A stretch of 64,000 nt of DNA from an archaeon (GTDB taxonomy: Archaea > Undinarchaeota > Undinarchaeia > Undinarchaeales > JBDRKL01): assembly GCA_043814055.1 (NCBI GenBank), contig JBDRKL010000012.1:64001-128000 (forward strand), read 5' to 3'. Position numbers and translations under genes: made by a program. Under the pieces are notes generated by a model, which was given only the letters and a program-made list of their open reading frames with translations, did not search any database and had not been told where the DNA came from. Shown piece by piece: positions 36,369 through 58,671 of this stretch. Every line of letters starts with the position of its first letter. Within the stretch, counting starts at the first letter, position 1.

Positions 36369-36539
36369 ATGGGAAAGAAAGAAAAGGTCAGCCTGCCGCC
36401 AATGGGCGGGGGATTGTTCAGGCCAACAGAAGGCGAAGGAACAGGACTAAAGCTCAAGCCAGAGCACGTAATTGGAGCTGTTATTTTTGTGATTGTTTTT
36501 GAGGTTTTTCTTCACTTTTACGGGAACTCGCTGTTTTAA
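36369..36539 (+). CDS. secG: Preprotein translocase subunit Sec61beta (absent from ORF track)
   Basis: My translation: MGKKEKVSLPPMGGGLFRPTEGEGTGLKLKPEHVIGAVIFVIVFEVFLHFYGNSLF; LP.xGGGL.R...KxxPE + TM pattern. Confidence 0.88.
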   Translation: MGKKEKVSLPPMGGGLFRPTEGEGTGLKLKPEHVIGAVIFVIVFEVFLHFYGNSLF

Positions 36540-37566
36540 CTCCAGGAATTGAAAGTATTGGGGAATCACGTTCAGTAAAAGATGAGCCGTAGGTTTGCGT
36601 CCGTTCTATGCCGGGAATTTTGATAATCTCTTTGATGATTTGCTTCATGATTTCACGCTCGCTTGAGCCGTGAGCCTTCGCAACTATGTTGAACTTTCCG
36701 GAGAGGATATGTGCCTGAGTGATATTTGGTATGGCTGCAAGAGCCTTCAGGATGTCGTCAAGCTTTATGTTCTTGTCTATTAGTTTGTCAGCTGAGATTG
36801 TTGAGACGAAGATGAAAGCGGTTGCAGGAAGGCCTATTTTTCCAGGGACTATTTTTGCGTGGTAGCCAATGATAACCTCGTTTGTTTCAAGGCGGCGCCT
36901 GCGGTGGTGCACAGTGGTTGGAGGGATGTTAAGTTTTGAGCCAAGCTCACGGGAAGAGAGCATGCAATTCTGCTGAAGCTCAGCGAGGATTTTGCGGTCA
37001 GTGTTGTCAAGCTTGACCTCGCCTTCCTTGAGCACTGGGATTTCCTTTTTCACTGACTCGTGGATAGAAAGCTCGTGGCTGTCCAGGGCAGAGAGTCCGA
37101 TGAAAAGCGTCTCGGTTCGGTTGATTCCAGGAACAGCTCGGATTTGGTCAATAAAGAGACGACCGATCTCCCAATCAGTGGCGCCTGTTGCCCTAACGAG
37201 TATGTCCAAATCCCCTGTGAGAATGTCAACGCTTGAGACGTTGTTAAGCTTTCCAATCTCGTGAGTGATGTCATATACGCTCAGCTTTTCCTGCATCATC
37301 AGGTGTAGGGAGAGAATTTCAATAAGAATTAGGACTGATGTATTAAGGCCGACTGCGTTTGGATTTAATTTTGCGTGGTATCCTGATATCACGCCGGTTG
37401 CCTCAAGTCGCTTGCGCCTGTGATGTGCAGTGGTTGAGGGGATTCCAACTTTTGAGCCAAGCTCACGGGAGGAGAGCATGCAATTCTGCTGAAGCTCAGC
37501 AAGAATCAAGCGGTCAGTGTTGTCAAGCTTGACCGGAGCTATGGGATTTGGGAGAGTTTCTTTCAT
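36481..37566 (-). CDS. Tandem (double) Lrp/AsnC transcriptional regulator
   Basis: Two LDNTDRxILAELQQN HTH + RAM domain units. Confidence 0.9.
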   Translation of the reverse strand: MKETLPNPIAPVKLDNTDRLILAELQQNCMLSSRELGSKVGIPSTTAHHRRKRLEATGVISGYHAKLNPNAVGLNTSVLILIEILSLHLMMQEKLSVYDITHEIGKLNNVSSVDILTGDLDILVRATGATDWEIGRLFIDQIRAVPGINRTETLFIGLSALDSHELSIHESVKKEIPVLKEGEVKLDNTDRKILAELQQNCMLSSRELGSKLNIPPTTVHHRRRRLETNEVIIGYHAKIVPGKIGLPATAFIFVSTISADKLIDKNIKLDDILKALAAIPNITQAHILSGKFNIVAKAHGSSEREIMKQIIKEIIKIPGIERTQTYGSSFTERDSPILSIPGVKTASSRKSEEKPQKQSQK

Positions 37567-41760: not shown

Positions 41761-42191
41761 AAACAAGCGAGGATTTTTCAAAGCTCAAGAAGGGCGACGA
41801 GGTTTTGCTCTCTGGGAAAGTTTACATTGCCCGAGATTTGGCGCATAAAAAATTGCTTGAAGAGGATTTTGATTTGAAAATTGATGTTATTTACCACTGC
41901 GGACCTTTGTTTAAGGGCGATGAGATTGTTTCTGCAGGGCCGACCACTTCAAAGAGAATGGAACCATACACGAAAGAGGTTGTTGAGAAGTACGGGGTTC
42001 GCGGGATAATTGGGAAAGGCGGGATGGAAGTGCCTGAAGGTGTTGTTTATTTTGAAGCTGTGGGCGGAGCAGGAGCTCTGCTTGCGAAGAAAATTAAGAG
42101 CTGGAAGAAGATTGTTGACTTGGGACCGGTTGAGAGCATTCTTGAATGCGAGGTTGAGGAGTTTCCGGTTATAGTTTCATCTTCGCGCTGA
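41757..42191 (+). CDS. Class I fumarate hydratase / tartrate dehydratase beta subunit (short)
   Basis: ARDLAHK, IYHCGP, AGPTTSKRM, IIGKGGM. Confidence 0.88.
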   Translation: MKTSEDFSKLKKGDEVLLSGKVYIARDLAHKKLLEEDFDLKIDVIYHCGPLFKGDEIVSAGPTTSKRMEPYTKEVVEKYGVRGIIGKGGMEVPEGVVYFEAVGGAGALLAKKIKSWKKIVDLGPVESILECEVEEFPVIVSSSR

Positions 42192-42792
42192 GCAGTTCAT
42201 ACGCCTTTGTAGCATCTTTTTCATCAACTATAAAAATCGTGTCAGTGTAGCAGGATATTACCTCAACTATGTTTATACCTTCGGCTGAAAGGAGCCCTGT
42301 TGTATACTCAACAAAACCAAGTGTTTCTTCAACATCAATGGGGCTGATTAAAGCAATCTCCACAAGGTTCTTGCGTATTTCTATGGCGTTGACTACATCA
42401 ACCTTTTCCAGATCCTCGTTGTTTATCACTAGAGTGTCGGCATTTGAGCCGCTTGAGGTATGAATTGGCTTGAAACCTTTAACTTTCAGCTCCCCCTTCT
42501 TGAAAGTTATGTCAACAACACAGTTCTTCATGCTGATTTGAGACTTTGAAAGGAGCTTCAGGAGTTTTGTTTCCTGGACGCTGGCTTCCTTGCTCAAAGT
42601 TTCAGCAAAGCGGCGGGCTGAGACAGCGATTGCATCGTTGCTGACTTTTCGGCCAAGGGTTTCAACTATAGCGGGCTTTATTTTTTCAGCTAGAGCAGAG
42701 TAGTTTATTATGCCATTCTCCATTGCATACAACAAGTACGGCTTTTTCTCTAAGTTCTCGCGCACAGTTTTTGCGAGTGAGTTTTGCTTCAT
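42169..42792 (-). CDS. ACT-domain protein with N-terminal HTH-like region; candidate amino-acid-responsive regulator
   Basis: GIINYSALA N-domain; C-terminal ACT (LLSAEGINIVEVISCYTDTIFIV); start likely MKQNS at 42792. Confidence 0.8.
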   Translation of the reverse strand: MKQNSLAKTVRENLEKKPYLLYAMENGIINYSALAEKIKPAIVETLGRKVSNDAIAVSARRFAETLSKEASVQETKLLKLLSKSQISMKNCVVDITFKKGELKVKGFKPIHTSSGSNADTLVINNEDLEKVDVVNAIEIRKNLVEIALISPIDVEETLGFVEYTTGLLSAEGINIVEVISCYTDTIFIVDEKDATKAYELLSAKMKL

Positions 42793-42800
42793 ACATATAA

Positions 42801-42882
42801 TGTCGTATTTAAGACATATAAATATTGCGGTGATTTTAGAGAATACCACACAAAATTGGATTATTTTGTCTTATTTAAGACA
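42801..42882. promoter_or_regulatory. Two 16-bp palindromic operators TGTCKTATTTAAGACA
   Basis: TGTCGTATTTAAGACA (42801-42816) and TGTCTTATTTAAGACA (42867-42882) in the divergent promoter. Confidence 0.75.
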
Positions 42883-42920
42883 CATTTTTGATATAGGATG
42901 TTGAGCACTTTTAGTGGGCT

Positions 42921-43787
42921 ATGAAATTAGAATTTAAAAAATATCATCATTGCGGAAACGACTTCGTTATAGTTGATGATTTAACTGGGACGATCGAGCC
43001 AGAGTTTGCAAAGAAGCTCAGCAAAAACCTTCTCAAGAGAAAATATGCAATTGGGGGAAATGATTTACTTTATTTGAAAAGTGATGAAGATACTGATGCA
43101 TTTATGCACATTTACAATGTCTCGGATGTTGAGGGGAGTATGTGCGGAAATGGCAGTCTTTGTGCTGGAAAATATCTCAGTGGAAAGCTTGGTAAAAATG
43201 AAATAAAAATAAAAACCTTGTCTGGAATTGTTAATATTAAAAAGATAGGCAATAACTTCTTTGAACTTGGGCTAGGACAGGTTTTTCACAAGTATGGCGA
43301 GCTTTCAAAGTTTTTCAAGTATCCTGGGCTGGCTAAAGAGGAAAGTGTGCTTGCAGTTGAATTTAACATAAAAGAAGTTCCACCGTTTATTGGAAATGTT
43401 GTGCATGTTGGGGAACCACACTTGGTTGTTTTTGAAACTGAGGTAGATAAAGTGGATTTGCAGAAGTTTGGAGATGCTGTAAACAATTGCAAAAAACATT
43501 TTCCAGAATTTATAAACTTAAATCTTGTACAGATTTTGGACGAGAAAACAATAAAAATCCGCACATATGAGCGCAGCTGTTTTGAAGAAACCGATGCTTG
43601 CGCCACCGGAAGCACATGTGCAGCATATGTTTGCAAATTACTGGGAAATCTAAAAGAAGATATGATTACTGTCAAGGTCAAGGGTGGAGAATTCAAAGTT
43701 TATGCAAAAAAGAATATGAATTATCTTGTTGGGAGCCCAGAGAAAGTTTTTGAAGGTCATGTAGCGATACCAGAGGGGGAATTTTAG
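42921..43787 (+). CDS. dapF: Diaminopimelate epimerase-like PLP-independent epimerase
   Basis: GNDF, SMCGNG, GEPH, RTYER..ETDACATG (both catalytic Cys). Confidence 0.8.
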   Translation: MKLEFKKYHHCGNDFVIVDDLTGTIEPEFAKKLSKNLLKRKYAIGGNDLLYLKSDEDTDAFMHIYNVSDVEGSMCGNGSLCAGKYLSGKLGKNEIKIKTLSGIVNIKKIGNNFFELGLGQVFHKYGELSKFFKYPGLAKEESVLAVEFNIKEVPPFIGNVVHVGEPHLVVFETEVDKVDLQKFGDAVNNCKKHFPEFINLNLVQILDEKTIKIRTYERSCFEETDACATGSTCAAYVCKLLGNLKEDMITVKVKGGEFKVYAKKNMNYLVGSPEKVFEGHVAIPEGEF

Positions 43788-43788
43788 A

Positions 43789-44982
43789 ATGAACCAAAAA
43801 ATAATATTGGCATACAGTGGTGGACTTGATACATCGTTCTGTGTGCCATACCTGAAAGAGAAGGGATACGACGTAATAACCCTGACAGTTGATACTGGAG
43901 GGCTGAACAAGGATGAGCTTGAGTATATCGAGAGCCATTCAAAGGAGCTTGGGGCTTCAAAGCACTACTTTGTTGACGCGAAGGATGAGGTTTATGAGAA
44001 AATCATAACCAATGTGATAAAAGCGAACGGGCTTTACCAGGGAGTTTACCCCCTGATGTGCTCGGACAGGTTCCTTTTTGGGAAGTATGCCAAGGAAATC
44101 GCGGACAAGGAGGGCACGAATGTTATAGCGCACGGCTGTACAGGCACTGGGAATGACCAGTTTCGTATAGAGCTTCCTGTGCTTGCAATGTATCCTGAGA
44201 TTGAGATAGTTGCGCCAGTGAAGGAATTGGGGAGCACGCGTGATTATGAAATAGAATATCTGGAAAAGAAAGGGTTTGAAGTTCCGAAAGAGGTCAAGAA
44301 GTACACTTATAATCAGAATGTGTTTGGAGTTACGATTTCAGGCTCTGAGATTGACGAGAACAAGGAGATTCCTGAGAGCGCGTGGGTAATGTCTAAAGTC
44401 ACGAAGACTGAGCCGGAGTATGTTGAAATTGAATTTGAGAAAGGAGTCCCGGTTGGATTAGATGGTAAAAATTTGCCTGGGATTGAGATACTCGGAAAGC
44501 TGAATGAAGTTGCTGGAGCGCACGGATATGGCCAAGGATACTATATTGAAGATGAAATCCTTGGAATAAAGGGACAGCAGGCGTTTGAGGCTCCGGGTTT
44601 GATGCTAATTATAGAAGCACACAAAACATTGGAGAAATTGACGTTGACCAAGGAGCAGTTGAGCATTAAGCACGGGCTTGAGTATACTTGGGCTGAGTAC
44701 GCGTATTTGGGCAAGCTGTTTGACCCAATGATGAAGGATGTTCAGGCGTTTTTTGATTCAACGCAAGAGTCCGTGAATGGAAAGGTAAAGATGAAGCTGG
44801 AGCACAAATCAGCTTTCCTGTGCGAGGTGCACAGCCCGAACTCGTTGATTGACGAAGATGTGGCGTTGTATGCACAGAAGGCAACTTGGACCGGAGGGGA
44901 CGTGAATGCATTCATGAAATTCTATGGGATGCAAAGCACAACGTTCAATAAAAAAAATGAAAAAACAAATCTGGAAAACTGA
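43789..44982 (+). CDS. argG: Argininosuccinate synthase
   Basis: LAYSGGLDTS, HGCTGTGNDQFR, FEKGVPV, FEAPG. Confidence 0.95.
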   Translation: MNQKIILAYSGGLDTSFCVPYLKEKGYDVITLTVDTGGLNKDELEYIESHSKELGASKHYFVDAKDEVYEKIITNVIKANGLYQGVYPLMCSDRFLFGKYAKEIADKEGTNVIAHGCTGTGNDQFRIELPVLAMYPEIEIVAPVKELGSTRDYEIEYLEKKGFEVPKEVKKYTYNQNVFGVTISGSEIDENKEIPESAWVMSKVTKTEPEYVEIEFEKGVPVGLDGKNLPGIEILGKLNEVAGAHGYGQGYYIEDEILGIKGQQAFEAPGLMLIIEAHKTLEKLTLTKEQLSIKHGLEYTWAEYAYLGKLFDPMMKDVQAFFDSTQESVNGKVKMKLEHKSAFLCEVHSPNSLIDEDVALYAQKATWTGGDVNAFMKFYGMQSTTFNKKNEKTNLEN

Positions 44983-46132
44983 AAAAGAGAATGAATTGAA
45001 TCCAACTATTCTGGAGTATAATTCAGGAGAGAATATCCAGCTTGACCAGGCTTTGCTCAAATATGACATCAAAGTGAACAAAGCGCATGCGAATATGCTT
45101 GAGAAAACTGGGTTGATTTCAGCTGAAGAAAACAAAAAGATTCAGGAGGCATTGAACAAGATTCCAGAGGATTTTAAACTGGATCCGGAACTTGAAGACG
45201 TTCATATGAATGTTGAGTCTGCGCTTGGAGAAATTGGAAAGAAACTGCACACTAGCAAGAGCAGAAACGACCAGGTTATGGCTGACCTGCAACTCTATAT
45301 GAAAGACCAGATAGGAGAAATTGCTGGAGGACTGCAGGAGCTTCAGAAAGTTTTGAAAGAGAAAGCAGATGAGTACAAAGGAGCAGAAATGCCGGCTTAC
45401 ACGCACATGCAGCCAGCGGTTTCCACCACGTTTGATGAATGGATTGGAGCTTATGCCTGCCTGTTTGAGTCAGACGTTGAGTTTTTTAATACTGCAAAAA
45501 AGTCTCTTTTTTGCCCGCTTGGCGCGTGCGCTGTGGCCGGCACCAATCTTCCAATAGACAAGAAAATGACTGCAAAGGAGCTTGGGTTTGAAAAAAGCTT
45601 TGAGAATCCAATTGCAGTGATAAGCTCGCGCGGGGAGGTTGAGACACACTGCTTGTTCGGGCTTTCAATGGCAATGTTGCACTTGAATAAGCTGGCGAAT
45701 GACCTTCAGCTTTATTCCACATTTGAGTATGGAATGATTGAGCTAGCGGATGAAGTTTGCACTTCCAGTTCCATAATGCCGCAGAAGAAGAATCCAGACG
45801 TATTGGAGATTTTGCATTCTAAAAGTGTAGAGATTCACAGTTTGTTGATGCAAAACCTTATGATACTTAATTCATTGACTTCTGGGTTTCACATGGATAT
45901 GCAGCAGACCAAGAAGAATGTGATGCAAGGATTTGAGATTGTCCTGAAAAGTATTGAAGTTATGAAAATTGTAATTGCCGGACTAAAAGCAAACCCGGAG
46001 AAGATGAAAGAGTTGGTTGAGGCAAGTGGCTGCAATGCGATTAAGGAAGTTGAGCAGCTTGTTTTAGGTGGGATGCCGTTCCGTGATGCGTATAAGAAAG
46101 TGAGGCAAAACTATATAACCGCGAATAGGTAA
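44957..46132 (+). CDS. argH: Argininosuccinate lyase (short)
   Basis: EDVHMNVE, LHTSKSRNDQ, YTHMQ, SSIMPQKKNPD, PFRDAY. Confidence 0.93.
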   Translation: MKKQIWKTEKENELNPTILEYNSGENIQLDQALLKYDIKVNKAHANMLEKTGLISAEENKKIQEALNKIPEDFKLDPELEDVHMNVESALGEIGKKLHTSKSRNDQVMADLQLYMKDQIGEIAGGLQELQKVLKEKADEYKGAEMPAYTHMQPAVSTTFDEWIGAYACLFESDVEFFNTAKKSLFCPLGACAVAGTNLPIDKKMTAKELGFEKSFENPIAVISSRGEVETHCLFGLSMAMLHLNKLANDLQLYSTFEYGMIELADEVCTSSSIMPQKKNPDVLEILHSKSVEIHSLLMQNLMILNSLTSGFHMDMQQTKKNVMQGFEIVLKSIEVMKIVIAGLKANPEKMKELVEASGCNAIKEVEQLVLGGMPFRDAYKKVRQNYITANR

Positions 46133-46164: not shown

Positions 46165-47271
46165 ATGGCTGATAAGAGTCTAATTGTGTTCAGGGACGGC
46201 GCTGTGCTAGAGGGGAGAAGCTTTGGCGCGCGGAAAACTGTTGTCGGCGAGATAGTTTTCAATACTGCTATGACAGGTTACCAGGAATCGCTGACTGACC
46301 CTTCCTACCACAGGCAGATTCTGAACCAGACCTACCCGATTGTTGGAAATTACGGAATTGATGAGGAAAGTTTTGAGGGCAGCAAGCTCTGGGCCTCCGG
46401 GTTCCTGGTCAGGGACTTGTGCGAGAAGCCGTCGCATTATAAATCCATAAAAACTTTGGATGAATTTTTAAAAGAGCAGGATGTTCCCGGGGTTTGCGGG
46501 ATTGACACAAGGGCAGTCACTGTGAAGCTGAGGAATGCTGGCTCAATGCTTGGCGCGATTGTGCCTTATGAGGGAAAAAAGCCTGAGCTGGGAAAAATCA
46601 GGGAAGAAATCAGCTCGTTTGACTATGCAGGAGCGGACCTGGTCAAGGATTACGCAGAGGCTGAGTTCAAGGACAAGGAGAAAATTATCCACGGCAAAGG
46701 GAACACGTACAAGGTTGTGATGATTGACTGCGGAGTCAAGCTCGGGATTGTGCGCGAGATGGTGAAGCGCGATATTGAGGTTATAAGGGTTCACCCTGTG
46801 ACAAGCGCTGAGAAGATTCTTGCAATGAAGCCGGACTGCGTGCACATTTCAAACGGACCTGGGAATCCTGAGACAATACTTTACGCAATAGAAACTGCGA
46901 AGAAGCTTGTGGGAAAAGTTCCAATGCACGGGATTTGCGTTGGTCACGGCGTTATTGCCGCGGCGTGCGGAGGGAAAAATTTCAAGATGAAGTTCGGCCA
47001 CCGCGGAGGGAACCACGGGGTTAAGGATTTGAAAACCGGGAAGGTTTTCATCACTTCGCAGAACCACGGCTTCTGCGTGGATGGGGATTCGCTGAAAGGC
47101 ACTGGGCTTGAGGTTACTGAAGTTAACTGCAATGATGGGACTGTGGAAGGAATGGATCATACAAAGTATCCGATTTTTTCAACGCAGTACCATCCTGAGG
47201 CGAACCCAGGACCTTACGACGCGCTTGGGAAGTTTGACAGGCTTGTTGAGATGATAAAGGAGAACCGATGA
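46165..47271 (+). CDS. carA: Carbamoyl-phosphate synthase small subunit
   Basis: GEIVFNTAMTGYQE.LTDPSY, SNGPGNP, GICVGH, QYHPEA. Confidence 0.96.
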   Translation: MADKSLIVFRDGAVLEGRSFGARKTVVGEIVFNTAMTGYQESLTDPSYHRQILNQTYPIVGNYGIDEESFEGSKLWASGFLVRDLCEKPSHYKSIKTLDEFLKEQDVPGVCGIDTRAVTVKLRNAGSMLGAIVPYEGKKPELGKIREEISSFDYAGADLVKDYAEAEFKDKEKIIHGKGNTYKVVMIDCGVKLGIVREMVKRDIEVIRVHPVTSAEKILAMKPDCVHISNGPGNPETILYAIETAKKLVGKVPMHGICVGHGVIAAACGGKNFKMKFGHRGGNHGVKDLKTGKVFITSQNHGFCVDGDSLKGTGLEVTEVNCNDGTVEGMDHTKYPIFSTQYHPEANPGPYDALGKFDRLVEMIKENR

Positions 47272-50200
47272 AAAGAGATGTGAAAAAAGTGCTTGTGATT
47301 GGCTCTGGCCCGATTGTGATAGGCCAGGCTGCAGAGTTTGACTACTCAGGAAGCCAGGCGCTAAAGGCGATGAAAGAGGAAGGCGTCAAAACCGTGCTTG
47401 TCAATTCAAATCCCGCTACTATTCAGACTGACAGGGACATGGCTGATGCAGTTTACATAGAACCGCTGACCCCCGAGATTGTTGAGAAAGTGATTGAAAA
47501 GGAGAAACCGGACGGAATTTTGTCCGGGATGGGAGGGCAGACAGCGTTGAATATAATTTCTGAATTGGCTGAACGCGGAGTTCTTGAAAAGCACAATGTT
47601 CAAGTGCTTGGGACTCCGGTTGATACGATTGAAACCAGCGAAAACAGGGAGTTGTTCAAGCAGATGATGCTCAAGATTGGGGAGCCGGTTCCGAAGTCAA
47701 AGAGCGTGAACACAGTTCAAGAGGCGCTGGATTTTGCAGAGGAAATAGGATATCCGGTTGTTGTAAGGCCGGCTTACACACTTGGCGGCTCAGGCGGCGG
47801 CATTGCCCACGACTTCGTTGACCTAGAGAGGATTGCAGGCAATGGCATTTCGCTGAGCAGGATAGGCCAGGTTCTCATAGAGGAATACCTGAGCGGCTGG
47901 AAGGAGATAGAGTACGAGGTTATGCGCGATTCTGCTGACAACTGCATAACCATCTGCAATATGGAGAACCTTGACCCGATGGGAATACACACAGGGGATA
48001 GCATTGTTGTTGCGCCGTCGCAGACGCTGAGCGATGATGATTACCACATGCTGCGCTCGGCGAGCCTGAAAATTATCCGCGCGCTGAAAGTGGAGGGCGG
48101 GTGCAACATACAGTTTGCCCTTGACCCAAAAAGCAGCGATTATAGAATCATAGAAGTCAACCCGAGAGTTTCAAGAAGCTCAGCGCTCGCGTCAAAAGCA
48201 ACCGGATACCCAATAGCACTCATCTCCGCTAAGATAGCAATTGGCAGAACGCTTGGTGAGATACCAAACGCAGTAACTAAAGACACGCCAGCCTCTTTTG
48301 AGCCGGCGCTGGATTATATTGTTGTTAAAATACCAAGATGGCCATTTGAGAAGTTCCCAATGGCTGACAGAACCCTTGGAACCGAGATGCGCAGCACTGG
48401 TGAGGTGATGGCAATAGGCAGGACGTTTGAGGAGGCGCTGGACAAGGCAGTGAGGAGCTTGGATATTGGGAAGAAATTGATTGATGGGACTGGGGAGATG
48501 GATAAGGGGCACTTGAGAGAATTTTTGACAGTCGCAACTCACAAGCGGCTGTTCCACATAGTTGACGCGATTAAGAGCGGATTTTCAGACGAGGAGATTG
48601 TTGAGCTCACAAAGATAGATCCGTGGTTTATCTGGAAAGTACGGAGCATTGTGGAGAGTGGAGATGGGAAAAAGAAAAAGTGCTACAAGATGGTGGACAC
48701 TTGCGCGGCAGAGTTTGAGGCAAAGACGCCGTATTACTATTCGACTGAAGGCGATGTAAGTGAGAGCGTTGCATCAAACAAGAAGAAAATAATTATACTT
48801 GGCTCCGGGCCAATACGGATAGGACAGGGTATTGAGTTTGACTACTGCACTGTTCACGCGGTGTGGGCGCTTAGGGAGATGGGCATAGAGACAATTGTAA
48901 TTAACAACAACCCAGAGACAGTTTCAACTGATTATGACACTTCGGATAAATTGTATTTTGAGCCGCTTGATTTTGAGCACGTGATGAATGTTGTGAACGT
49001 GGAGAAACCAACAGGCATTATAACCCAGTTCGGCGGGCAGACAGCTGTAAATCTTTCTTTGCCTTTAGAAAAAGCAGGTGTTAAAGTCTTTGGAACCTCA
49101 CCAAAAAGTATGGACTTGGCTGAGGACAGGACTAAATTCACAAAGGTTTTGAAAAAGCTCAAGATACCGCAGGCAAACTATGGTGTTGCACACAGCTTTG
49201 AAGATGCAAAGAAGGTTGTTGCCAGTATTGGCTATCCGGTTTTGGTCAGGCCGTCTTATGTTCTTGGTGGCAGGGCAATGGAGATAGTGCATAGCGAAGA
49301 TGAACTTGTGAATTACATGAAAGAGGCCAGAAAAGTTTCTGAAAAGCGACCCATACTCATTGACCAATTTTTGCAGAATGCGATAGAAGTTGATGTTGAT
49401 GCGGTGTGTGATGGAAGTGAAGTGCTTATTGGCGGCATCATGGAGCACATAGAGCAGGCAGGAGTGCACTCTGGGGACAGCTCGTGCGTTGTGCCACCGC
49501 AGAGTTTGAGCAACGAGATTGTGAAGAAAATCAGGGATTACACTAAAAAGCTTGCGCTAGGTTTGAATGTTGTTGGGTTAATGAATGTGCAGTATGCGGT
49601 GAAAGATGAGGTGGTTTATGTTCTTGAGGCGAACCCGCGGAGCTCAAGGACAGTGCCGTTCATAAGCAAGGCAACAGGGATTCCGCTCGCGAAGATTGCG
49701 GCGCAGGTCATAGCCGGAAAGAAATTAAAAGAGTTAAAAGTGAAGAACAAAATTCTGAATCATGTTTCAGTTAAGTCCGTTGTTTTCCCGTTCAACAAGC
49801 TGCCTGGCTCTGACACCAAGCTCGGGCCTGAGATGAAGAGCACTGGAGAAAGCATGGGCATAGCTGACAGCTTCCCGGAGGCATTTTACAAGGCACAGCT
49901 CGGCGCAGGCGTTGAGATTCCATCAGATGGGTGTGTTTTTTTCGCTGTGAACCACGAGGACAAAGAGCATATCACTGAGATAGCGCGCGGCTTTGAGGGG
50001 CTGGGGTTTGAGATACTTGCAGTTGGCCGAACTGCAAAAATTCTCCGCGTGGACGGCGTTTCAGTTAGAAAAGTCTTTAAGGCCAGCGAGGGAAACCTAA
50101 ACATTGTTGACCTTATCAAGCGCGGAGAAGTGGACCTTGTGATTAACACGCCGACAAAAGGAGGATCAGCGAATAGGGATGGCTATAAGATACGGACGGC

Positions 50201-50321
50201 GTGCATACGCTCAAATGTTCCGTGCATAACAACGCTTGCAGGGGCAAGGGCTGCGCTCAAGGCGATTGAAAATGCAGGTAGGGGCGGGATGCAGGTTAAG
50301 CCGCTTGGGGATTACTACTGA
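47268..50321 (+). CDS. carB: Carbamoyl-phosphate synthase large subunit
   Basis: GSGPIVIGQAAEFDYSG, two ATP-grasp units, MGS domain. Confidence 0.97.
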   Translation: MKRDVKKVLVIGSGPIVIGQAAEFDYSGSQALKAMKEEGVKTVLVNSNPATIQTDRDMADAVYIEPLTPEIVEKVIEKEKPDGILSGMGGQTALNIISELAERGVLEKHNVQVLGTPVDTIETSENRELFKQMMLKIGEPVPKSKSVNTVQEALDFAEEIGYPVVVRPAYTLGGSGGGIAHDFVDLERIAGNGISLSRIGQVLIEEYLSGWKEIEYEVMRDSADNCITICNMENLDPMGIHTGDSIVVAPSQTLSDDDYHMLRSASLKIIRALKVEGGCNIQFALDPKSSDYRIIEVNPRVSRSSALASKATGYPIALISAKIAIGRTLGEIPNAVTKDTPASFEPALDYIVVKIPRWPFEKFPMADRTLGTEMRSTGEVMAIGRTFEEALDKAVRSLDIGKKLIDGTGEMDKGHLREFLTVATHKRLFHIVDAIKSGFSDEEIVELTKIDPWFIWKVRSIVESGDGKKKKCYKMVDTCAAEFEAKTPYYYSTEGDVSESVASNKKKIIILGSGPIRIGQGIEFDYCTVHAVWALREMGIETIVINNNPETVSTDYDTSDKLYFEPLDFEHVMNVVNVEKPTGIITQFGGQTAVNLSLPLEKAGVKVFGTSPKSMDLAEDRTKFTKVLKKLKIPQANYGVAHSFEDAKKVVASIGYPVLVRPSYVLGGRAMEIVHSEDELVNYMKEARKVSEKRPILIDQFLQNAIEVDVDAVCDGSEVLIGGIMEHIEQAGVHSGDSSCVVPPQSLSNEIVKKIRDYTKKLALGLNVVGLMNVQYAVKDEVVYVLEANPRSSRTVPFISKATGIPLAKIAAQVIAGKKLKELKVKNKILNHVSVKSVVFPFNKLPGSDTKLGPEMKSTGESMGIADSFPEAFYKAQLGAGVEIPSDGCVFFAVNHEDKEHITEIARGFEGLGFEILAVGRTAKILRVDGVSVRKVFKASEGNLNIVDLIKRGEVDLVINTPTKGGSANRDGYKIRTACIRSNVPCITTLAGARAALKAIENAGRGGMQVKPLGDYY

Positions 50322-51502: not shown

Positions 51503-53665
51503 ATGGCAAAGAAAGAAAAGTCAAAAAAAGCGGTAAAGAAGAAGGTAATGCCGAAAACTCTAAAGAAGAAGGCAGCCATTAAGAAGAAACTAGTAGTGAA
51601 GAAGAAAGCTTTGATTAAGAAAAAAATTGTAGTGAAGAAGAAACCAGTGTCTAAGAAGAAAGTGACACCAAAGAAGAAGGTTTCAAAACCAAAGAAAGCC
51701 CTTGCAAAGAAAAAGCTGGTGGTGAAAAAGAAAGCTGCAAAACCGAAAGCCAAAAAGGCAGCGATTAAGAAGAAACCGGTAAAAGCAAAGAAAACTGTGA
51801 AGAAGACAACAGTTAAGAAGAAGGTTTCAATAAAAAAGAAGGCTGTAAAAGCCAAGAAAAAAGCAGCAAAACCTAAGAAGCCGCCGGAACCAAAAGAAGA
51901 GCAAGAACCTGAGAAACCAAATGAACCTACCTATGACCCGTGGCAGGAACTAAAGAATCAGGCACAAGCAGCGATTGAAGAAGCTGTGAAGACCGCGAAG
52001 ATTAAGGTTCCATCAGAGGTAAATTTTGCAACTGCGATTGAAGAGCCGCCAAGCGCCAAGATGGGAGATGTGGCTTGTAGCATTGCGTTTTCATTGGGAA
52101 GAGCATCTAAGAAGAACCCAAGACAGCTTGCGGAACTGCTCATATCAAAAGTAAAGAAGCCGCCAATTTTCAAGAAGGTTGCGCTCGCAGGAGCGTACAT
52201 CAATTTCTTTCTGGATCACGATAAGTTCGCAAAGCACATTCTTGCAAAGGTTGTTGACGACGATTATGGCCGGGGAGGGAAGAAGGGCGACAAGGTAATG
52301 GCAGAGTTCTGCCAGGTTAACACGCACAAGGCGTTTCATATTGGGCATATTAGGGGAACCATACTTGGCGAGACTATTTCACGCATTTTGGAGTACAGCG
52401 GGTATGAAGTTGTGAGAGCAAATTACCAAGGGGACATTGGCTCGCACGTTGCAAAGTGGATGTGGTATTATAACAAGTTCAAGAGTGGAGAGAGCCCGCA
52501 TGGCAAGGGGGAAACCTGGCTTGCTAATATTTACCGGGCTGCCACGCAGGAGCTAAGGGAGCACCCTGAATACGAGAAAGAGACCAGCGAGATTCTGCAG
52601 AAGCTTGAAGCCGGTGAAGATGAAAAACTGATGCAGGCCTGGCGGGAAACTCGGCAGTGGTCGCTTGATGAGTATGAGAAAATTTACAAAGAGCTTGACG
52701 TGCGATTTGACCGATATTTCTTTGAGAGCGAGATGGGAAACTCTGGCAAGGAAATCGTGGACGAACTGCTCAAGAAAAAGATTGCAAAGATGAGCGAGGG
52801 CGCTATTGTGATAAATTTGGAGAAGTTTGGGCTCGGAACGTATCTTTTGCTTAAGAGCGACGGGACCGCGCTTTATTCCACCAAGGACCTGGCGCTTGCA
52901 AAGGCTAAGTTTGAAGAGTTTGGAATTGATATTTCACTTTATGTTGTTGGATCAGAGCAGCGGCTTTATTTCCAGCAGCTGTTCAAGACGCTTGAGCTGA
53001 TGGGCTTCAAGCGCGCGAAGAAGTGCCACCATCTTGCTTTTGACCTGATAAGCCTGAAGGAAGGCAAGATGTCCTCAAGGGAAGGTACTGCCATTTTATA
53101 TTCTGAGCTGAGAGACGGGATGTTCAAGAGGGCGCTTGAAGAAGTTATGGAAAGAAATCCGGAGATGGACCCGCACGAACAGAAGATCATTGCGAATAAA
53201 GTTGCGTACGGCGCGATGAAGTTTGACATACTTAACATAAACAACAACAAGACAATATTCTTTGACTGGGAAAAAGCACTTGAATTTGAGGGCGAGACCG
53301 CGCCTTATGTGCAGTACGCCGGAGTTCGATGCAAGAGAATACTTGAGAAGGCTGGAAAAGTGCCTGAGACTGGAAAAGTTGACTTCGGAAAGCTGAAGCT
53401 TGCAGCAGAGCACGAGCTTGTCAAGATGCTCGCGAGATTCCCTGGGGTTATTGCCACGGCTGCGAAGGAGTACAAACCGCACTTCATTGCGAATTATGTA
53501 TATGGGCTAGCTGACAAGTTTAGCACTTTCTATACCGAGGCGCCTATAATGGACGCGGGAGATAAGGCAACAAAAGATGCTCGGCTTATGCTGCTAAGCG
53601 CAACATATAAAACCCTTGAGAAAGCCCTATATCTGCTCGGAATAGAAATTCCTGAGCGTATGTAA
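51503..53665 (+). CDS. argS: Arginyl-tRNA synthetase with about 140-aa Lys/Ala/Pro/Val-rich N-terminal extension
   Basis: NTHKAFHIGHIR (HIGH), KMSSREG, GETAPYVQYA, LGIEIPERM. Confidence 0.96.
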   Translation: MAKKEKSKKAVKKKVMPKTLKKKAAIKKKLVVKKKALIKKKIVVKKKPVSKKKVTPKKKVSKPKKALAKKKLVVKKKAAKPKAKKAAIKKKPVKAKKTVKKTTVKKKVSIKKKAVKAKKKAAKPKKPPEPKEEQEPEKPNEPTYDPWQELKNQAQAAIEEAVKTAKIKVPSEVNFATAIEEPPSAKMGDVACSIAFSLGRASKKNPRQLAELLISKVKKPPIFKKVALAGAYINFFLDHDKFAKHILAKVVDDDYGRGGKKGDKVMAEFCQVNTHKAFHIGHIRGTILGETISRILEYSGYEVVRANYQGDIGSHVAKWMWYYNKFKSGESPHGKGETWLANIYRAATQELREHPEYEKETSEILQKLEAGEDEKLMQAWRETRQWSLDEYEKIYKELDVRFDRYFFESEMGNSGKEIVDELLKKKIAKMSEGAIVINLEKFGLGTYLLLKSDGTALYSTKDLALAKAKFEEFGIDISLYVVGSEQRLYFQQLFKTLELMGFKRAKKCHHLAFDLISLKEGKMSSREGTAILYSELRDGMFKRALEEVMERNPEMDPHEQKIIANKVAYGAMKFDILNINNNKTIFFDWEKALEFEGETAPYVQYAGVRCKRILEKAGKVPETGKVDFGKLKLAAEHELVKMLARFPGVIATAAKEYKPHFIANYVYGLADKFSTFYTEAPIMDAGDKATKDARLMLLSATYKTLEKALYLLGIEIPERM

Positions 53666-53868: not shown

Positions 53869-54351
53869 ATGACCTTAGTAGACGAATGCAAAATAAGGGA
53901 CGCAGCGCCTGAAGATGTTGATGCAATCATAGAACTGTACAAGGAAGCCCTAGTCCCGATATGGGACAGGATACACAGGCCCTATGACCTTGTTAGGCTA
54001 AGGAGAACGCTTGAGAAACGGTTTGAAAAAGGGCATAGCGGTCTGGTGGTTGTTAGGGAGAACAAGATTATTGGGTGCGTTCTGACCGCACTGCGAACCG
54101 GGAAGATATCCAATAAAAAAGTAATGAAAATATCGTCTCTTCTGGTCAAGCCGGAATTTTTTGGGAAAGGCTTAGGCCAGGAACTCATTAGAATCGTAGA
54201 AGACACAGCAAGGCAAAATGGCGTGGAGCGGATAAGACTGAAGTGCGCCTATAAGAACACTGCACTGGAGTTCTACAACAAAATGGGTTTTCAGGAAGAC
54301 CAGATAAGCTTTATCAAGGAGCTAAAAACAAAAAAAGCCCCCGTAGTCTAG
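53869..54351 (+). CDS. GNAT family acetyltransferase
   Basis: IRDAAPEDVDAI, LLVKPEFFGKGLG, NTALEFYNKMGF. Confidence 0.85.
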   Translation: MTLVDECKIRDAAPEDVDAIIELYKEALVPIWDRIHRPYDLVRLRRTLEKRFEKGHSGLVVVRENKIIGCVLTALRTGKISNKKVMKISSLLVKPEFFGKGLGQELIRIVEDTARQNGVERIRLKCAYKNTALEFYNKMGFQEDQISFIKELKTKKAPVV

Positions 54352-54410
54352 TTTGGATAGGATGTGAGCTTGCGGAGCTCGAGGCTTGGGTTCAAATCCC
54401 GACGGGGGCA
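54337..54410 (+). tRNA. tRNA-Arg(GCG), intronless
   Basis: GCCCCCG/CGGGGGC acceptor; TGAGC-TTGCGGA-GCTCG; TTGGG-TTCAAAT-CCCGA. Confidence 0.92.
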
Positions 54411-55886
54411 CTAATGTTTTCTTTTACTAAAACTCTTTTTGAACTCGTGGCGCCAGAGCTTGTCGCGGAATGACTTTCGCTTTGAGTTGAAAAAGAAGAC
54501 TGCAGCTATTATGAGGAGTATTACAACAGCTAAAAGCAGTTTTCCGCCTAAGGAGTCCAGCAACCTGACCGGTTTTTCCTCAATTACAAATGCTGCAGAT
54601 TCGCTCTCCGCAAGCCGCTGTTCATCCACAAGAATCGTGACCTTGAGCAAGTGGTCGCCAGGCGCTTCTGGGATGTCCCAGACGCTCAACACATCCTTTT
54701 TCTCGCCCCTGAGAAGCGTGAATGAATTAAAACCAATTTTATAAGAGTCCATATAGAAGTTTACCGTGCCCTGAATGTCAATGTTTCCTGTGTTCTCAAG
54801 CGCGGCAACCAAATCTACTTGGTCTCCAATGTACGCGGAGCTGGCGTTGAGCTTGAGGCCGGCAAGTAATTTCTTTTCTTCCGCGACTGTGAAAGTCTTT
54901 GCGCACTTGCCCTTGTTGCCATACTCATCAGTTGCCTCTGCCTTTGCAGTGTACTGGCCGGGAGGGTCCTGCTTGCTTATCGGGGCTTCAAAAGAGAAGT
55001 GGCCGTTGCTATCTGAGATTGCGTCATATGTTGTTGAGATGTCCTCTGAGGTTGTAAACCAGGATTTTGTGCTTATTTTATCAAGTGGCTCGTCGTGCAC
55101 ATTGTCTATGGTTCCAAAGAGGACCACAACACCGCCTGGGTTTATGTTTGTCTTCTGGAGAGAACACGCCATCTTGAGCTCATCCGTGACAATGATGTCA
55201 TCAATGATGGAGGTTCTTGCGTTCCCGTAGTTGTCAAGAAAGTTTGCTTCTAGTGAATATGTTCCAGGAGGGTCTGACGCTTTGAATGTGTAAGCGTAGG
55301 ATATGTAGCCGTTCTTAAGGTCTGCGGAATCTGTAACAATGCCACCCAGACCGGACTCCTCAAGGCTTATGGACGCTTTGCCCTCTACCGGGAACCCGTG
55401 GGCGTTAAGGACTATACTGCTGAACTCAAGGGTTTCGCCTCGGTTGAAGATGCGAGCGTTTATGCTACGCTCAACAAAGAGGTTCTCGGTTATGGTGAAT
55501 TTGCCAGAGTAAAAATCTGCATAGGAATCGTAGCCGGTCTTTATCTTTACCTTGATTCTCCAGTCGTCCGCGGTGTTTATGGTGCTGGTTACGTCCCAGA
55601 GGAGTGTGCCCTTGGTGATTAGAGAGAATGAAACTGGGGTGTCTGCGAGGAAGGAGTATATTTTAGTGGTTATTGGAATTTCCTGGGAAGTAGAGTCGCT
55701 CACAGCAAGGAACTGGACCTCAGAGCCTGGAATGTTCTCGCCGAGCTCAATTGTTCCAGTAATCACGATTTGGTCGCCGTAGTTGAACGTGCTGTTCGCC
55801 CGCGGGTTTGAAACTGTCATTCCAGCGTGAGCCCCGGATAGCACGATTAGAAATAACACTAGGGCGCATAATGCAAGCTTTTTCAT
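54411..55886 (-). CDS. Secreted cell-surface protein with Ig-like/CARDB-like repeats and C-terminal TM anchor
   Basis: Signal peptide, repeated DPPGxY..D.YGN beta modules, LENTGN motif, TM + basic tail. Confidence 0.75.
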   Translation of the reverse strand: MKKLALCALVLFLIVLSGAHAGMTVSNPRANSTFNYGDQIVITGTIELGENIPGSEVQFLAVSDSTSQEIPITTKIYSFLADTPVSFSLITKGTLLWDVTSTINTADDWRIKVKIKTGYDSYADFYSGKFTITENLFVERSINARIFNRGETLEFSSIVLNAHGFPVEGKASISLEESGLGGIVTDSADLKNGYISYAYTFKASDPPGTYSLEANFLDNYGNARTSIIDDIIVTDELKMACSLQKTNINPGGVVVLFGTIDNVHDEPLDKISTKSWFTTSEDISTTYDAISDSNGHFSFEAPISKQDPPGQYTAKAEATDEYGNKGKCAKTFTVAEEKKLLAGLKLNASSAYIGDQVDLVAALENTGNIDIQGTVNFYMDSYKIGFNSFTLLRGEKKDVLSVWDIPEAPGDHLLKVTILVDEQRLAESESAAFVIEEKPVRLLDSLGGKLLLAVVILLIIAAVFFFNSKRKSFRDKLWRHEFKKSFSKRKH

Positions 55887-55926: not shown

Positions 55927-56826
55927 TTACTTTGTGATTTGAGTTCCTGCTTTTCCGCCAAGAGCTTTCTCAATATCGCTGAGGTGGCAGATTATTGCAC
56001 GCTCGCCGCCGGATTCAATAAAGTTTATTGCGGCTTGAATTTTCGGGCCCATTGAGCCCGCTGGGAAAGAATCCATGTGTTTTTTTGCTTCTTTAACCGT
56101 GAGTTTGTCAAGGAGCTTTTGGTTTGGCTTGCCGAAGTTGAGGTATGCGCCTTTCGTGTCCGTGACTATTAACAAAATATCTGCTCCGATTTCCTCGCCG
56201 AGCTTCGCGCTTGCAAGGTCCTTGTCTATGACTGCTTCTATGCCATGGTAGTTGTGCTCTTCCCTTTTTATCACAGGAATTCCGCCCCCGCCGCAGGTTA
56301 CAACCAGGAAGCCGGCCTTGAGGAGCTCCTTGATTTTGTAAGAGCCGACAATCCTTATTGGTTTTGGAGATGCCACGACTTTGCGCCAGCCCTTTGCGGT
56401 TTTCACAAAGCCTGGTTTTTTGTTTTTGTAAGCAGGGCCGATTGGCTTTGTCGGGTTCTTGAACGCTGGGTCGTTCGCGTCAACCTGAACGTAAGTTGAA
56501 AGGGTGGAGAGGAGCGGGTGCATAATTCCGATTTTCATTAATTCGTTATCAAGTGTTTTCTCAATCATGTAACCGATTTGACCCTGAGTCATAGCGACCA
56601 GGACTTCAAGGGGCATTTCAGGGACTTCAGAAGTTGCCTGCTGCTGGAGAAGAAGGTTGCCGACCTGGGGTCCGTTGCCGTGCGTGATTACAAGATTGTA
56701 TTTGCCGTATAATTTCGCGACCTTGCTCAGCGGGATTTCAAGGTTGTTGAACTGCTCGCTCACGTTCCCTTCCTGACCTTTCTGGATGAGGGCGTTGCCT
56801 CCGAGCGCGATAATTAGAGTTTTCAT
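55927..56826 (-). CDS. arcC: Carbamate kinase
   Basis: IALGGNAL, THGNGPQVG, NPTKPIG, GGGGIPV, AVIDKD, GSMGPK. Confidence 0.96.
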   Translation of the reverse strand: MKTLIIALGGNALIQKGQEGNVSEQFNNLEIPLSKVAKLYGKYNLVITHGNGPQVGNLLLQQQATSEVPEMPLEVLVAMTQGQIGYMIEKTLDNELMKIGIMHPLLSTLSTYVQVDANDPAFKNPTKPIGPAYKNKKPGFVKTAKGWRKVVASPKPIRIVGSYKIKELLKAGFLVVTCGGGGIPVIKREEHNYHGIEAVIDKDLASAKLGEEIGADILLIVTDTKGAYLNFGKPNQKLLDKLTVKEAKKHMDSFPAGSMGPKIQAAINFIESGGERAIICHLSDIEKALGGKAGTQITK

Positions 56827-56914
56827 TAATTTTGTATTATTTTGAGGGGTAATATGCTTTTTTGTTTGTGGAAAAACAAAATGTTTATGAAGGAATGAAT
56901 TTAAATGAAATAAA

Positions 56915-57655
56915 ATGGCAGTAACAAGCTATAGGAGAGACGGCGCTTTGCTTTTGGACAAGCTTTTCCCAGGGTTCGGGTTGGATGTTAAGATTTATGA
57001 AATCTGGAGGGATTTTGACTTAGATGATTACAAGATGGGGAAAGACGATCGTCTTATGGTGAGAACATTCGGCAGTAATTCTCCAAATGTTAGAAACCCA
57101 GATATAATTGTTAAGAATACTGCGGATGCGCTTAAGTTTATGAAAAGGCAGGCTAAGAAAAATCGGTTTGGATACATAGGTCAAAGGACCATGAATGAAA
57201 ATGATATAAAATATTCTGTGAGTGGCTCGCTTGATTATAGGAGAATTCCTTCATTAGCATTCACAATACGAGAAGTGGACAAAGGATTCATATTGAATAA
57301 TATGGAAACAGATGAGCGCGGAACAACTACACGAGAGGCAAAGGTGCTTGTTGAGTTCAAATATGATTATTTCTCCGCAACTCCGAAAGCTCCTAGCTTG
57401 TCACCACCTAATTTTCCGAAGAGCGAGCTTAGAAAACTGAAGAAAACTGTACTTCAGGTAGTGAAGTTCGCAAAAATAGTTGATGATAATTACACTAAAA
57501 ACTATGCGAAGAAGGACCTAATGCCAAATTTCCTTTTGTATGTTTCAAAGAAGGGCGACATTTTGCCAGTTGATTTAAAGCAGAAATACAATTTGAAGAG
57601 TACACAAAGAAAAATCTGGATGGGGATTAAAGTTTCCCCATCAAAAACAGCATAA
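56915..57655 (+). CDS. Hypothetical protein (possible divergent ATP-grasp fold)
   Basis: 246-aa AT-rich ORF; weak VRT / IGQ / SG pattern. Confidence 0.55.
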   Translation: MAVTSYRRDGALLLDKLFPGFGLDVKIYEIWRDFDLDDYKMGKDDRLMVRTFGSNSPNVRNPDIIVKNTADALKFMKRQAKKNRFGYIGQRTMNENDIKYSVSGSLDYRRIPSLAFTIREVDKGFILNNMETDERGTTTREAKVLVEFKYDYFSATPKAPSLSPPNFPKSELRKLKKTVLQVVKFAKIVDDNYTKNYAKKDLMPNFLLYVSKKGDILPVDLKQKYNLKSTQRKIWMGIKVSPSKTA

Positions 57656-58559
57656 TCGCGTTCTGGGCGTGCATTCTGTTCTCCGCCTGGTCGTACACGA
57701 TGCTCTGCGGTCCGTCAATCACGTCAGCTGTTTGCTCAAGCCCACGGGCTGCTGGGAGGCAGTTCATGAAAATCGCGTCCGGCTTTGCCTTGCTCATGAA
57801 GTCCGCGTTAATTTGGTACGGCATGAACTTTGCCTTGCGCGCTTCCATCTGGTCTTCTGGAATGTGGTAGGACATCCAGGAGTCAGTGTAGACCACATCC
57901 GCGTCCTTTGCTGCCTCAGCTGCGTCGTGTGTTACGATTACTTTGCCTCCAGAGGTTTTGCAGAGCTCTTTGCACTCGTCAAGAACTTCCTGCTCAGGGG
58001 AATATTCAGCACCCTCTGGGCAGGCTACTGCGATTTCAAAGCCCATCACAGCTGCTGCGCGCATCAGGTCGTAGGTCACGTTGTTGTGGCAGTCGCCGGA
58101 GTATGCCATCTTGATTCCTTCCAGACTTCCTTTCTTTTCAACTATTGCTTGGAGGTCGCAGATGATTTGGCACGGGTGCGCGAAGTCGTCAAGCGCGTTT
58201 ATTACTGGCACGTTGGATTCTTCAGAGAATTCTTTAAGGTCTTCCTTCTTGTTCACGCGGGCCATAATTATGTCAACATATCTTGAGGCGCACTTCGCAG
58301 TGTCCTTGATGTTCTCTTTCTTGCCGAGCGGGGAGTCCTTGATGCTGTAGAATATTGCGTGGCCACCGAGGCGAGTCATACCGGTTTCAAAGGAGACGCG
58401 GGTGCGCAGAGAGGGTTTCTCAAAGAGCATTAGAAGGGTCTTACTCTTCATTGTTGTGTTGTAATTCTCAGGGTTCTTTTTTATGTCAATTGCTTTTTCA
58501 ATAATAGTTGCAATCTCGTCCTTTGTAAAATCAGATACTTTTAGCAAATGTCTTGTCAT
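57627..58559 (-). CDS. argF: Ornithine carbamoyltransferase
   Basis: FEKPSLRTR, HPCQ, DVVYTDSWMS, CLPA, QAENR. Confidence 0.95.
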   Translation of the reverse strand: MTRHLLKVSDFTKDEIATIIEKAIDIKKNPENYNTTMKSKTLLMLFEKPSLRTRVSFETGMTRLGGHAIFYSIKDSPLGKKENIKDTAKCASRYVDIIMARVNKKEDLKEFSEESNVPVINALDDFAHPCQIICDLQAIVEKKGSLEGIKMAYSGDCHNNVTYDLMRAAAVMGFEIAVACPEGAEYSPEQEVLDECKELCKTSGGKVIVTHDAAEAAKDADVVYTDSWMSYHIPEDQMEARKAKFMPYQINADFMSKAKPDAIFMNCLPAARGLEQTADVIDGPQSIVYDQAENRMHAQNAIMLFLMGKL

Positions 58560-58671
58560 TCATCTCACCTTGGCACAAGTAAGGATGTATCGTTTATAAG
58601 AGTATTTATAAAAAATTTTTAAAAGGTTTTATAAATCAATATTTCTTAGTTGGTGCAAGGAGGGATTTAAA

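Follow-up and report, generated by a model that had tools for sequence, protein, structure and literature searches.

An uncharacterised archaeal protein family as a likely arginine-sensing gene switch where the bacterial-type ArgR is absent

An archaeal gene of an uncharacterised protein family faces an arginine operon across a promoter region with twin palindromes, and this family is likely an arginine-sensing gene switch where the bacterial-type ArgR is absent. The gene lies in a stretch of 64,000 nucleotides (hereafter the window; C12:64001-128000) taken from a genome of 980 kb which is 82% complete. The closest relatives of the encoded protein are from Undinarchaeota. The presence of the regulator gene with twin palindromes facing the arg operon is confirmed. 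Its reading as a regulator with its operator is, on comparative grounds, very probable. The whole reading, i.e., a dimeric arginine-sensing factor which would repress its own gene and activate dapF-argG-argH-carAB when arginine is short, is moderately probable. A literature search (subscription journals being largely outside it) gives no description of the regulator family or system; within the same range of journals, no publication is found that names a regulator of arginine synthesis in archaea.

The regulator gene (42169..42792, minus strand) starts at the ATG at 42792 and encodes 207 aa. A longer ORF starting at GTG 42849 is rejected as too long, because homologs start at ATG 42792. Across 128 nt, on the plus strand, lie dapF (diaminopimelate epimerase family, first operon gene, 42921..43787; TIGR00652 172 bits, cut-off 114.65), argG (argininosuccinate synthase, 43789..44982), argH (argininosuccinate lyase, 44924..46132; the ATG at 44957 may be its start), carA (carbamoyl-phosphate synthase small chain, 46165..47271) and carB (large chain, 47268..50321). 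The divergent arrangement put forward in the original prediction is borne out: dapF, argG, argH and carA are identified by family profiles, and carB is recognised from its translation alone. ArgR is not found in this genome. dapF is absent beside the regulator in the three closest orthologs. It heads here an arg operon in a genome where DapA is not found (82% complete), and its product may be a racemase/epimerase acting on another substrate.

A second arginine cluster (55927-60009) contains carbamate kinase, an unknown ORF, ornithine carbamoyltransferase and a divergent 445-aa gene, which we take to resemble the arginine synthetase ArcE. This last gene has 56% identity to a gene of locus L030, where the regulator lies inside a carbamate kinase/argF/ArcE-like cluster with a site before argF. 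Between the two clusters are found an arginyl-tRNA synthetase with a lysine-rich N-terminus (51503-53665) and a tRNA-Arg(GCG) (54337-54411). Elsewhere in the genome (C7:7607-10927, L197) occurs its sole PLP decarboxylase of LysA/SpeA type. A polyamine enzyme is a likelier identity for it than LysA, because its neighbours, as assessed by eye from their translations, are agmatinase-like and deoxyhypusine-synthase-like.

The region between regulator and operon contains two predicted operator sites of 16 bp. Site 1 (TGTCGTATTTAAGACA, 42801..42816) has one mismatch and a score of 15.4 with a matrix trained without this locus; site 2 (TGTCTTATTTAAGACA, 42867..42882) is a perfect palindrome with a score of 17.2, the best in the genome. 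Coordinates and sequence agree with the claim that both sites are identical at 15/16 positions, with starts 66 nt apart. Site 1 abuts the predicted TATA-like element of the regulator (TTTATA, 42817..42822, minus strand) and stands 8 nt before its ATG, i.e., between TATA and ATG as had been stated. Site 2 is 54 nt before the dapF ATG, and an imperfect TATA-like element of the operon is predicted 5 nt after it (TTGATATA, 42888..42895, plus strand). The position of site 2, −91/−92 from the regulator ATG, is kept in two Undinarchaeota orthologs; TTSAWATA is found at the matching offset after site 2 in orthologs L031 and L032.

At three mismatches, the count of 2 palindromes (2.46 expected) is not above chance. 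In the whole 980-kb genome, though, no site besides these two has 0 or 1 mismatch, and 2 more have two mismatches. A twin near-palindrome pair occurs in 0/30 locally shuffled windows. Four more such pairs, resembling repeat elements, occur on three other contigs of the genome, and a twin palindrome is therefore no proof by itself. As an observation apart, C10:138488-138640 carries a 67-nt unit with three copies of its palindromic core, and C8:32640-32720 a related 56-nt duplication; both immediately follow tRNA-like 3' ends. The near-perfect twin pair is peculiar to the genome studied. The exact 16-mer is present in 1/17 genomes of the phylum, this one alone, and the pattern TGTCTTA-NN-TAAGACA first proposed, which fits the two sites of the window, is thus too strict family-wide, the family motif being the looser TGTyy-N6-rrACA. 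A sigma-70 promoter scan, which is inapplicable to an archaeon, shows no excess.

The motif was sought by counting spaced palindromes in 23 dereplicated promoters, with the window left out. TGT-N10-ACA ranks fourth (6/23 promoters; shuffle mean 0.64, maximum 4) and GTC-N8-GAC third. A matrix was then derived from 100 other promoters; its pattern is wTGTyynAWWTnrrACAw. Trained without the window, it ranks the two sites 1 and 2 in the window, and 1 and 4 genome-wide. Ten other high-scoring genome matches were inspected and all lie within ORFs; in addition, the matrix scan gives no operator site before the argF/arcE-like pair of the window. A wider regulon in this genome, which is 82% complete, is rejected for now on these two grounds.

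As had been expected, the motif co-occurs with the gene in homologs. A score of at least 12 is reached by 23 of 67 homolog promoters, against 0/160 control promoters, which belong to other genes of these loci, in a sample where some loci belong to the same families as training loci and one (L126) is apparently on the same contig as training locus L088. The other 44 promoters score under 12; 34 of the 67 exceed their own shuffles at p<=0.05. Lack of co-occurrence, named at the outset as refuting the prediction, was looked for at argG promoters distant from the regulator. A score of at least 10 is reached there in 7/25 loci whose genome has the gene and in 0/27 where the gene is not found (Fisher p 0.004, a value overstated owing to kinship; the counts exclude three argG loci that are broken or truncated by contig ends). 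In the large carA-linked group, no site is found at distant argG promoters. More sites away from the regulator promoter stand before carA, argC/argG, argF and ADI-like genes, and a score of 12 or more is found at 8 of the 163 distal promoters taken as candidates. The motif is equally frequent without nearby arginine/LysW genes (10/30 loci) and with core arg genes (11/34). It therefore marks the protein family and not arginine as such, so that arginine specificity rests on context and pocket.

These counts also bear on the possibility that the palindrome is read by another protein, e.g., of Lrp/AsnC type, and that the protein studied here serves arginine enzymes as a stand-alone allosteric partner. 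The window does encode a possible reader of this type, a double Lrp/AsnC protein in one chain (36481-37566); stand-alone ACT modules are known (1zvp, 1zhv); and the N-domain of the regulator matches no HTH family of Pfam, its sole N-terminal match being DUF7523. Against this, the motif accompanies the gene even beside unrelated neighbours, it is missing from argG promoters of genomes without the gene, and the N-terminal head is basic (12 K/R vs 8 D/E in residues 1-70) with an invariant arginine. Such a division of labour is thus highly improbable.

A protein reading its own operator is preferred. Pfam recognises DUF7523 (PF24367, residues 5-80, 38.8 bits) and ACT_7 (PF13840, residues 145-202, 30.6 bits; cut-off 27), and the nearest ESM Atlas clusters are the same DUF7523 + ACT_7 family. 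The AlphaFold model (pLDDT 95) predicts four N-terminal helices (about residues 1-82) followed by an interleaved module of two ACT units of aspartokinase type (about residues 83-207). This type had been proposed from the sequence and it holds in the predicted model, since aspartokinase regulatory domains are the best fold match (Z 13-14.7 over 116-130 residues). A single-sequence search of the PDB gives 2 chance matches and nothing more. The head is wingless in the model, a helical bundle with faint likeness to FF, BEN, GARP and homeodomain folds. Searched alone, it gives nothing at E<=0.001 in Foldseek and best Z values of 4.4-6.9 in VIA, all to assorted helical bundles. The HTH nature of the N-domain is plausible. 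R61 is invariant and N30 near-invariant; two such heads (R61, N30-Y-S-A-L-A) would in all probability read the TGTyy and rrACA halves. Four relatives (P0184, P0198, P0199, P0308; 460-485 aa) contain two whole regulator copies per chain, and these tandem-fused forms fit a dimeric regulator.

The sign of control is suggested by promoter geometry. Towards the operon, the strong site stands 50-54 nt before a TATA-like core in 21/30 dereplicated loci (shuffles: mean 2.3, maximum 7 loci). Aligned on the strong site, a second half-site appears at +30/33 and a BRE-like CGCAA at +44-48; three distant argG promoters show the same spacing (51-52). On the opposite strand, the sites of the family cover the TATA and start of the regulator itself. 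Archaeal activators have their binding sites upstream of BRE/TATA (PMC6737238, PMC3597687). Because the strong site has such a position, operon activation combined with self-repression appears somewhat likelier than plain repression for the family. The term repressor used in the original prediction thus fits the promoter of the regulator, but is doubtful at the operon, the strong site being well upstream of BRE/TATA family-wide.

In the proposed mechanism, site 1 would cover the start region of the regulator and quite likely represses that gene. Site 2 would help TBP/TFB to load on the weak operon promoter and arginine would end this help, a step for which the balance is only slightly favourable. 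It is the weakest step in the window because site 2 abuts the BRE position there. No TATA is found 51 nt after either site of the window; site 2 contains TTTAAG and ends 5 nt before the predicted TATA, an arrangement which would fit repression. The geometry of the window is thus ambiguous, being compatible with recruitment to a weak promoter as well as with a block on TFB.

The second option corresponds to a system in which the same protein and operator repress both promoters and arginine acts as co-repressor in the manner of ArgR, site 2 blocking TFB at BRE. The 5-nt distance to TATA, common to the window, L031 and L032, speaks for it, and so does the superposition of full-length AhrC on 131/149 residues (Z 8.2, rmsd 4.0; a Z near 8 may reflect a common arrangement). 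Tandem sites moreover recur at 21 nt in some loci, a period like that of tandem ARG boxes. However, the strong site is about 35 nt clear of TATA in the 21/30 loci and at the three distant argG promoters, and a repressor would need no fixed upstream phase. Co-repression at both promoters is accordingly rather unlikely, and activation of the operon with self-repression is retained.

The effector is approached through the pocket of CASTOR1. According to PMC5187391 and PMC5020642, G279-I280-V281 of CASTOR1 hold the carboxyl group of arginine, S111-V112 the amino group and T300-D304 the guanidinium, and D304A abolishes arginine binding. The regulator has G159-F160-V161, N174-I175 and S180-D184, i.e., the same 21- and 25-residue spacings as between G279, T300 and D304. 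The residue equivalence, with N174 in the place of S111, is a putative one deduced from spacing and end-points; the offset of the superposition end-points (119-120) places D184 within one residue of CASTOR1 D304. The ligand would bind between ACT modules, with G159-F160 on its carboxyl group, N174-I175 of the partner chain on its amino group and S180-D184 on its side chain, and this ligand would probably be arginine.

The predicted ligand loop S180-C-Y-T-D184-T varies with gene context. Of 57 dereplicated members with arg context, 55 have C/S at position 181 and 55 have T at position 185; at position 184, 37 have D and 16 have E. The lys-context members have T181, E184 and L/F185 in 5/5 cases, which resembles the STSE loop of aspartokinases; the basis of this code is thin, as the five sequences with lys context come from related branches. 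In a tree of 106 proteins made by a quick method, six lysW/HCS-linked rows and three others form one branch (support 94), which includes the second paralog of the genome studied. This paralog (L193, C12:147544-148221, outside the window) has the lysine-type loop STTTEL; it is divergent from lysW-lysX-argC-argB-argD, and a weaker site, scoring 8.9-10.4, lies 43 nt ahead of its start. The window protein clusters with argG/argF-linked Undinarchaeota orthologs (support 99).

A regulator with this operator and another effector, i.e., lysine, ornithine, citrulline or any basic amino acid, must also be considered. dapF, a lysine-pathway enzyme, heads the operon, the closest folds are ACT modules of aspartokinases, which bind lysine or threonine, and sister members adjoin lysW, homocitrate synthase or a PLP decarboxylase. 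On the other side, the window protein has the arg-context loop SCYTDT and the grouping just described, the lysine-type paralog of the same genome adjoins lysW-lysX, and DapA is not found in this incomplete genome. A different effector is therefore unlikely. Arginine is probably the effector of the window protein, because of its arg-context loop and its grouping with argG/argF-linked orthologs. In a separate long-branch subfamily divergent from hsp20 (f12: L020, L021, L146, L149, L167, L174, L189), the pocket is degenerate (no PG, FSQD loop) and the motif occurs in some promoters with scores up to 18.9; this subfamily is possibly rewired to heat-shock control.

The family is large. A profile search of 1.84 billion representatives gives 964 clusters at E<=1e-30, and 2485 at 1e-10, a figure which may contain aspartokinase ACT matches. 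A match is found in 88/301 archaeal genomes; 85 are of full-length type and three are partial matches in frames of 417-426 aa, probably aspartokinases. The family occurs in DPANN archaea, Thermoplasmata and methanogens. Automatic cluster labels place some members in Bacteroidota, where they are named «aspartate kinase». Among the best 80 of 236 GTDB loci, chosen by the SCYTD pattern and many from heavily related genomes, 75 have genes of the arginine pathway no further than about 5 kb away (core arg genes in 64 loci, argBCD alone in 11). A broad sample of 67/106 places (left out: genomes already sampled, near-duplicates, split or partial matches) gives, within about 5 kb, 34 loci with core arg/car genes, 3 with lysW/homocitrate synthase and 30 with neither. 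About 3% of the genome studied is as close to such genes. The neighbours include argG, argH, argF, carAB, argCBD, carbamate kinase and ADI-like genes.

The family offers a candidate regulator for which a predicted operator is defined, the promoter geometry is fixed and a specificity loop is predicted; the proposed reading would assign a function to all of it, which amounts to at least 964 clusters at 50% identity. Three questions become testable: (i) how archaea regulate arg genes; (ii) what tunes an ACT pocket of aspartokinase type to arginine or lysine; (iii) whether ArgR and CASTOR1 have this ancestry in common. A broader proposal is speculative and doubtful at present: the family would be the founding type of pan-archaeal amino-acid-sensing activators with a new DNA-binding head, its arginine and lysine subfamilies would differ by a three-residue change in the pocket loop, and it would form a structural bridge between ArgR (of identical layout, with one ACT unit fewer) and the pocket of animal CASTOR1.

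Among known systems, the tandem ACT modules of aspartokinases (2re1, 3c1n, 3tvi, 5yei) are the closest to residues 75-207 (Z 14.3-14.7, rmsd 2.0-2.4). Aspartokinase 3l76 is matched by sequence profile (E 4e-10). The PG, NI and S-x-x-E/D loops of the aspartokinase modules are aligned with those of the regulator. Unlike aspartokinases, the regulator has no kinase domain (no AA_kinase match in its 207 aa) and its ACT module is fused to a helical head; the NCBIfam aspartate kinase models give it 20-29 bits for cut-offs of 209-402. For arginine-bound CASTOR1 (5gs9, 5i2c), the C-terminal half (170-323) can be superposed on residues 75-204 of the regulator (Z 10.1, rmsd 2.7, 125 residues). The relation to CASTOR1 suggested at the outset stands at the level of fold, but aspartokinases are closer (Z 14.7) and CASTOR1 gives no sequence-profile match at E<=10. 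CASTOR1 has four ACT units per chain, signals through GATOR2 and does not bind DNA, whereas the regulator has two units.

ArgR/AhrC resembles the regulator in its role and in the order head, linker, ACT-like tail. The C-domain (1f9n, 1b4a, 1b4b) matches one of the two ACT units with Z 8.3 and the full length gives Z 8.0-8.2, the caution on values near 8 applying here too. The PG and D-T loops of ArgR fall in register with the regulator in hhalign, at a probability of at most 3.7% (with an ArgR profile of 6 sequences, the proteins collected for it being near-identical ones from Bacillus). ArgR is not among the top 50 matches of the head alone, an absence which does not exclude kinship, yet full-length AhrC aligns from residue 2. 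The regulator differs by its extra ACT unit and by the lack of wing strands in the model, ArgR being a hexamer with a winged HTH head and a single ACT-like oligomerisation domain. The statement that it is not of the ArgR family is upheld: no match to Arg_repressor or Arg_repressor_C (PF01316, PF02863) occurs at E<=0.1, and no ArgR Pfam match among 44 family members (25 families listed). With the family motif, a score of 0.7 is obtained for the argR promoter of E. coli, and the family operator does not qualify as an ARG box.

Tar and TrpY are also archaeal regulators of amino-acid biosynthesis, compared here with the regulator by description; TrpY has an ACT domain. According to PMC6737238, TrpY is a repressor which acts between divergent promoters and represses itself, and Tar (TK0271) is a MarR-like protein which activates from the palindrome TGGACA-N8-TGTCCA upstream of BRE/TATA and is not released by end products. 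LysM of Sulfolobus is, according to PMC3597687, a sensor of basic amino acids and a proposed activator released by its ligand, with a strong site upstream of BRE/TATA and a weaker site 21 bp away. It has the Lrp/AsnC fold, and the strong site of the regulator family is further upstream than that of LysM. No Pfam match of Lrp/AsnC type, to the AsnC-type HTH or the RAM domain, is found for the window protein, while the double Lrp/AsnC protein at 36481-37566, taken as a control, matches at E 4e-27. By the tests applied the regulator is a member of none of these families; it resembles LysM and TrpY in its logic and ArgR in its pathway.
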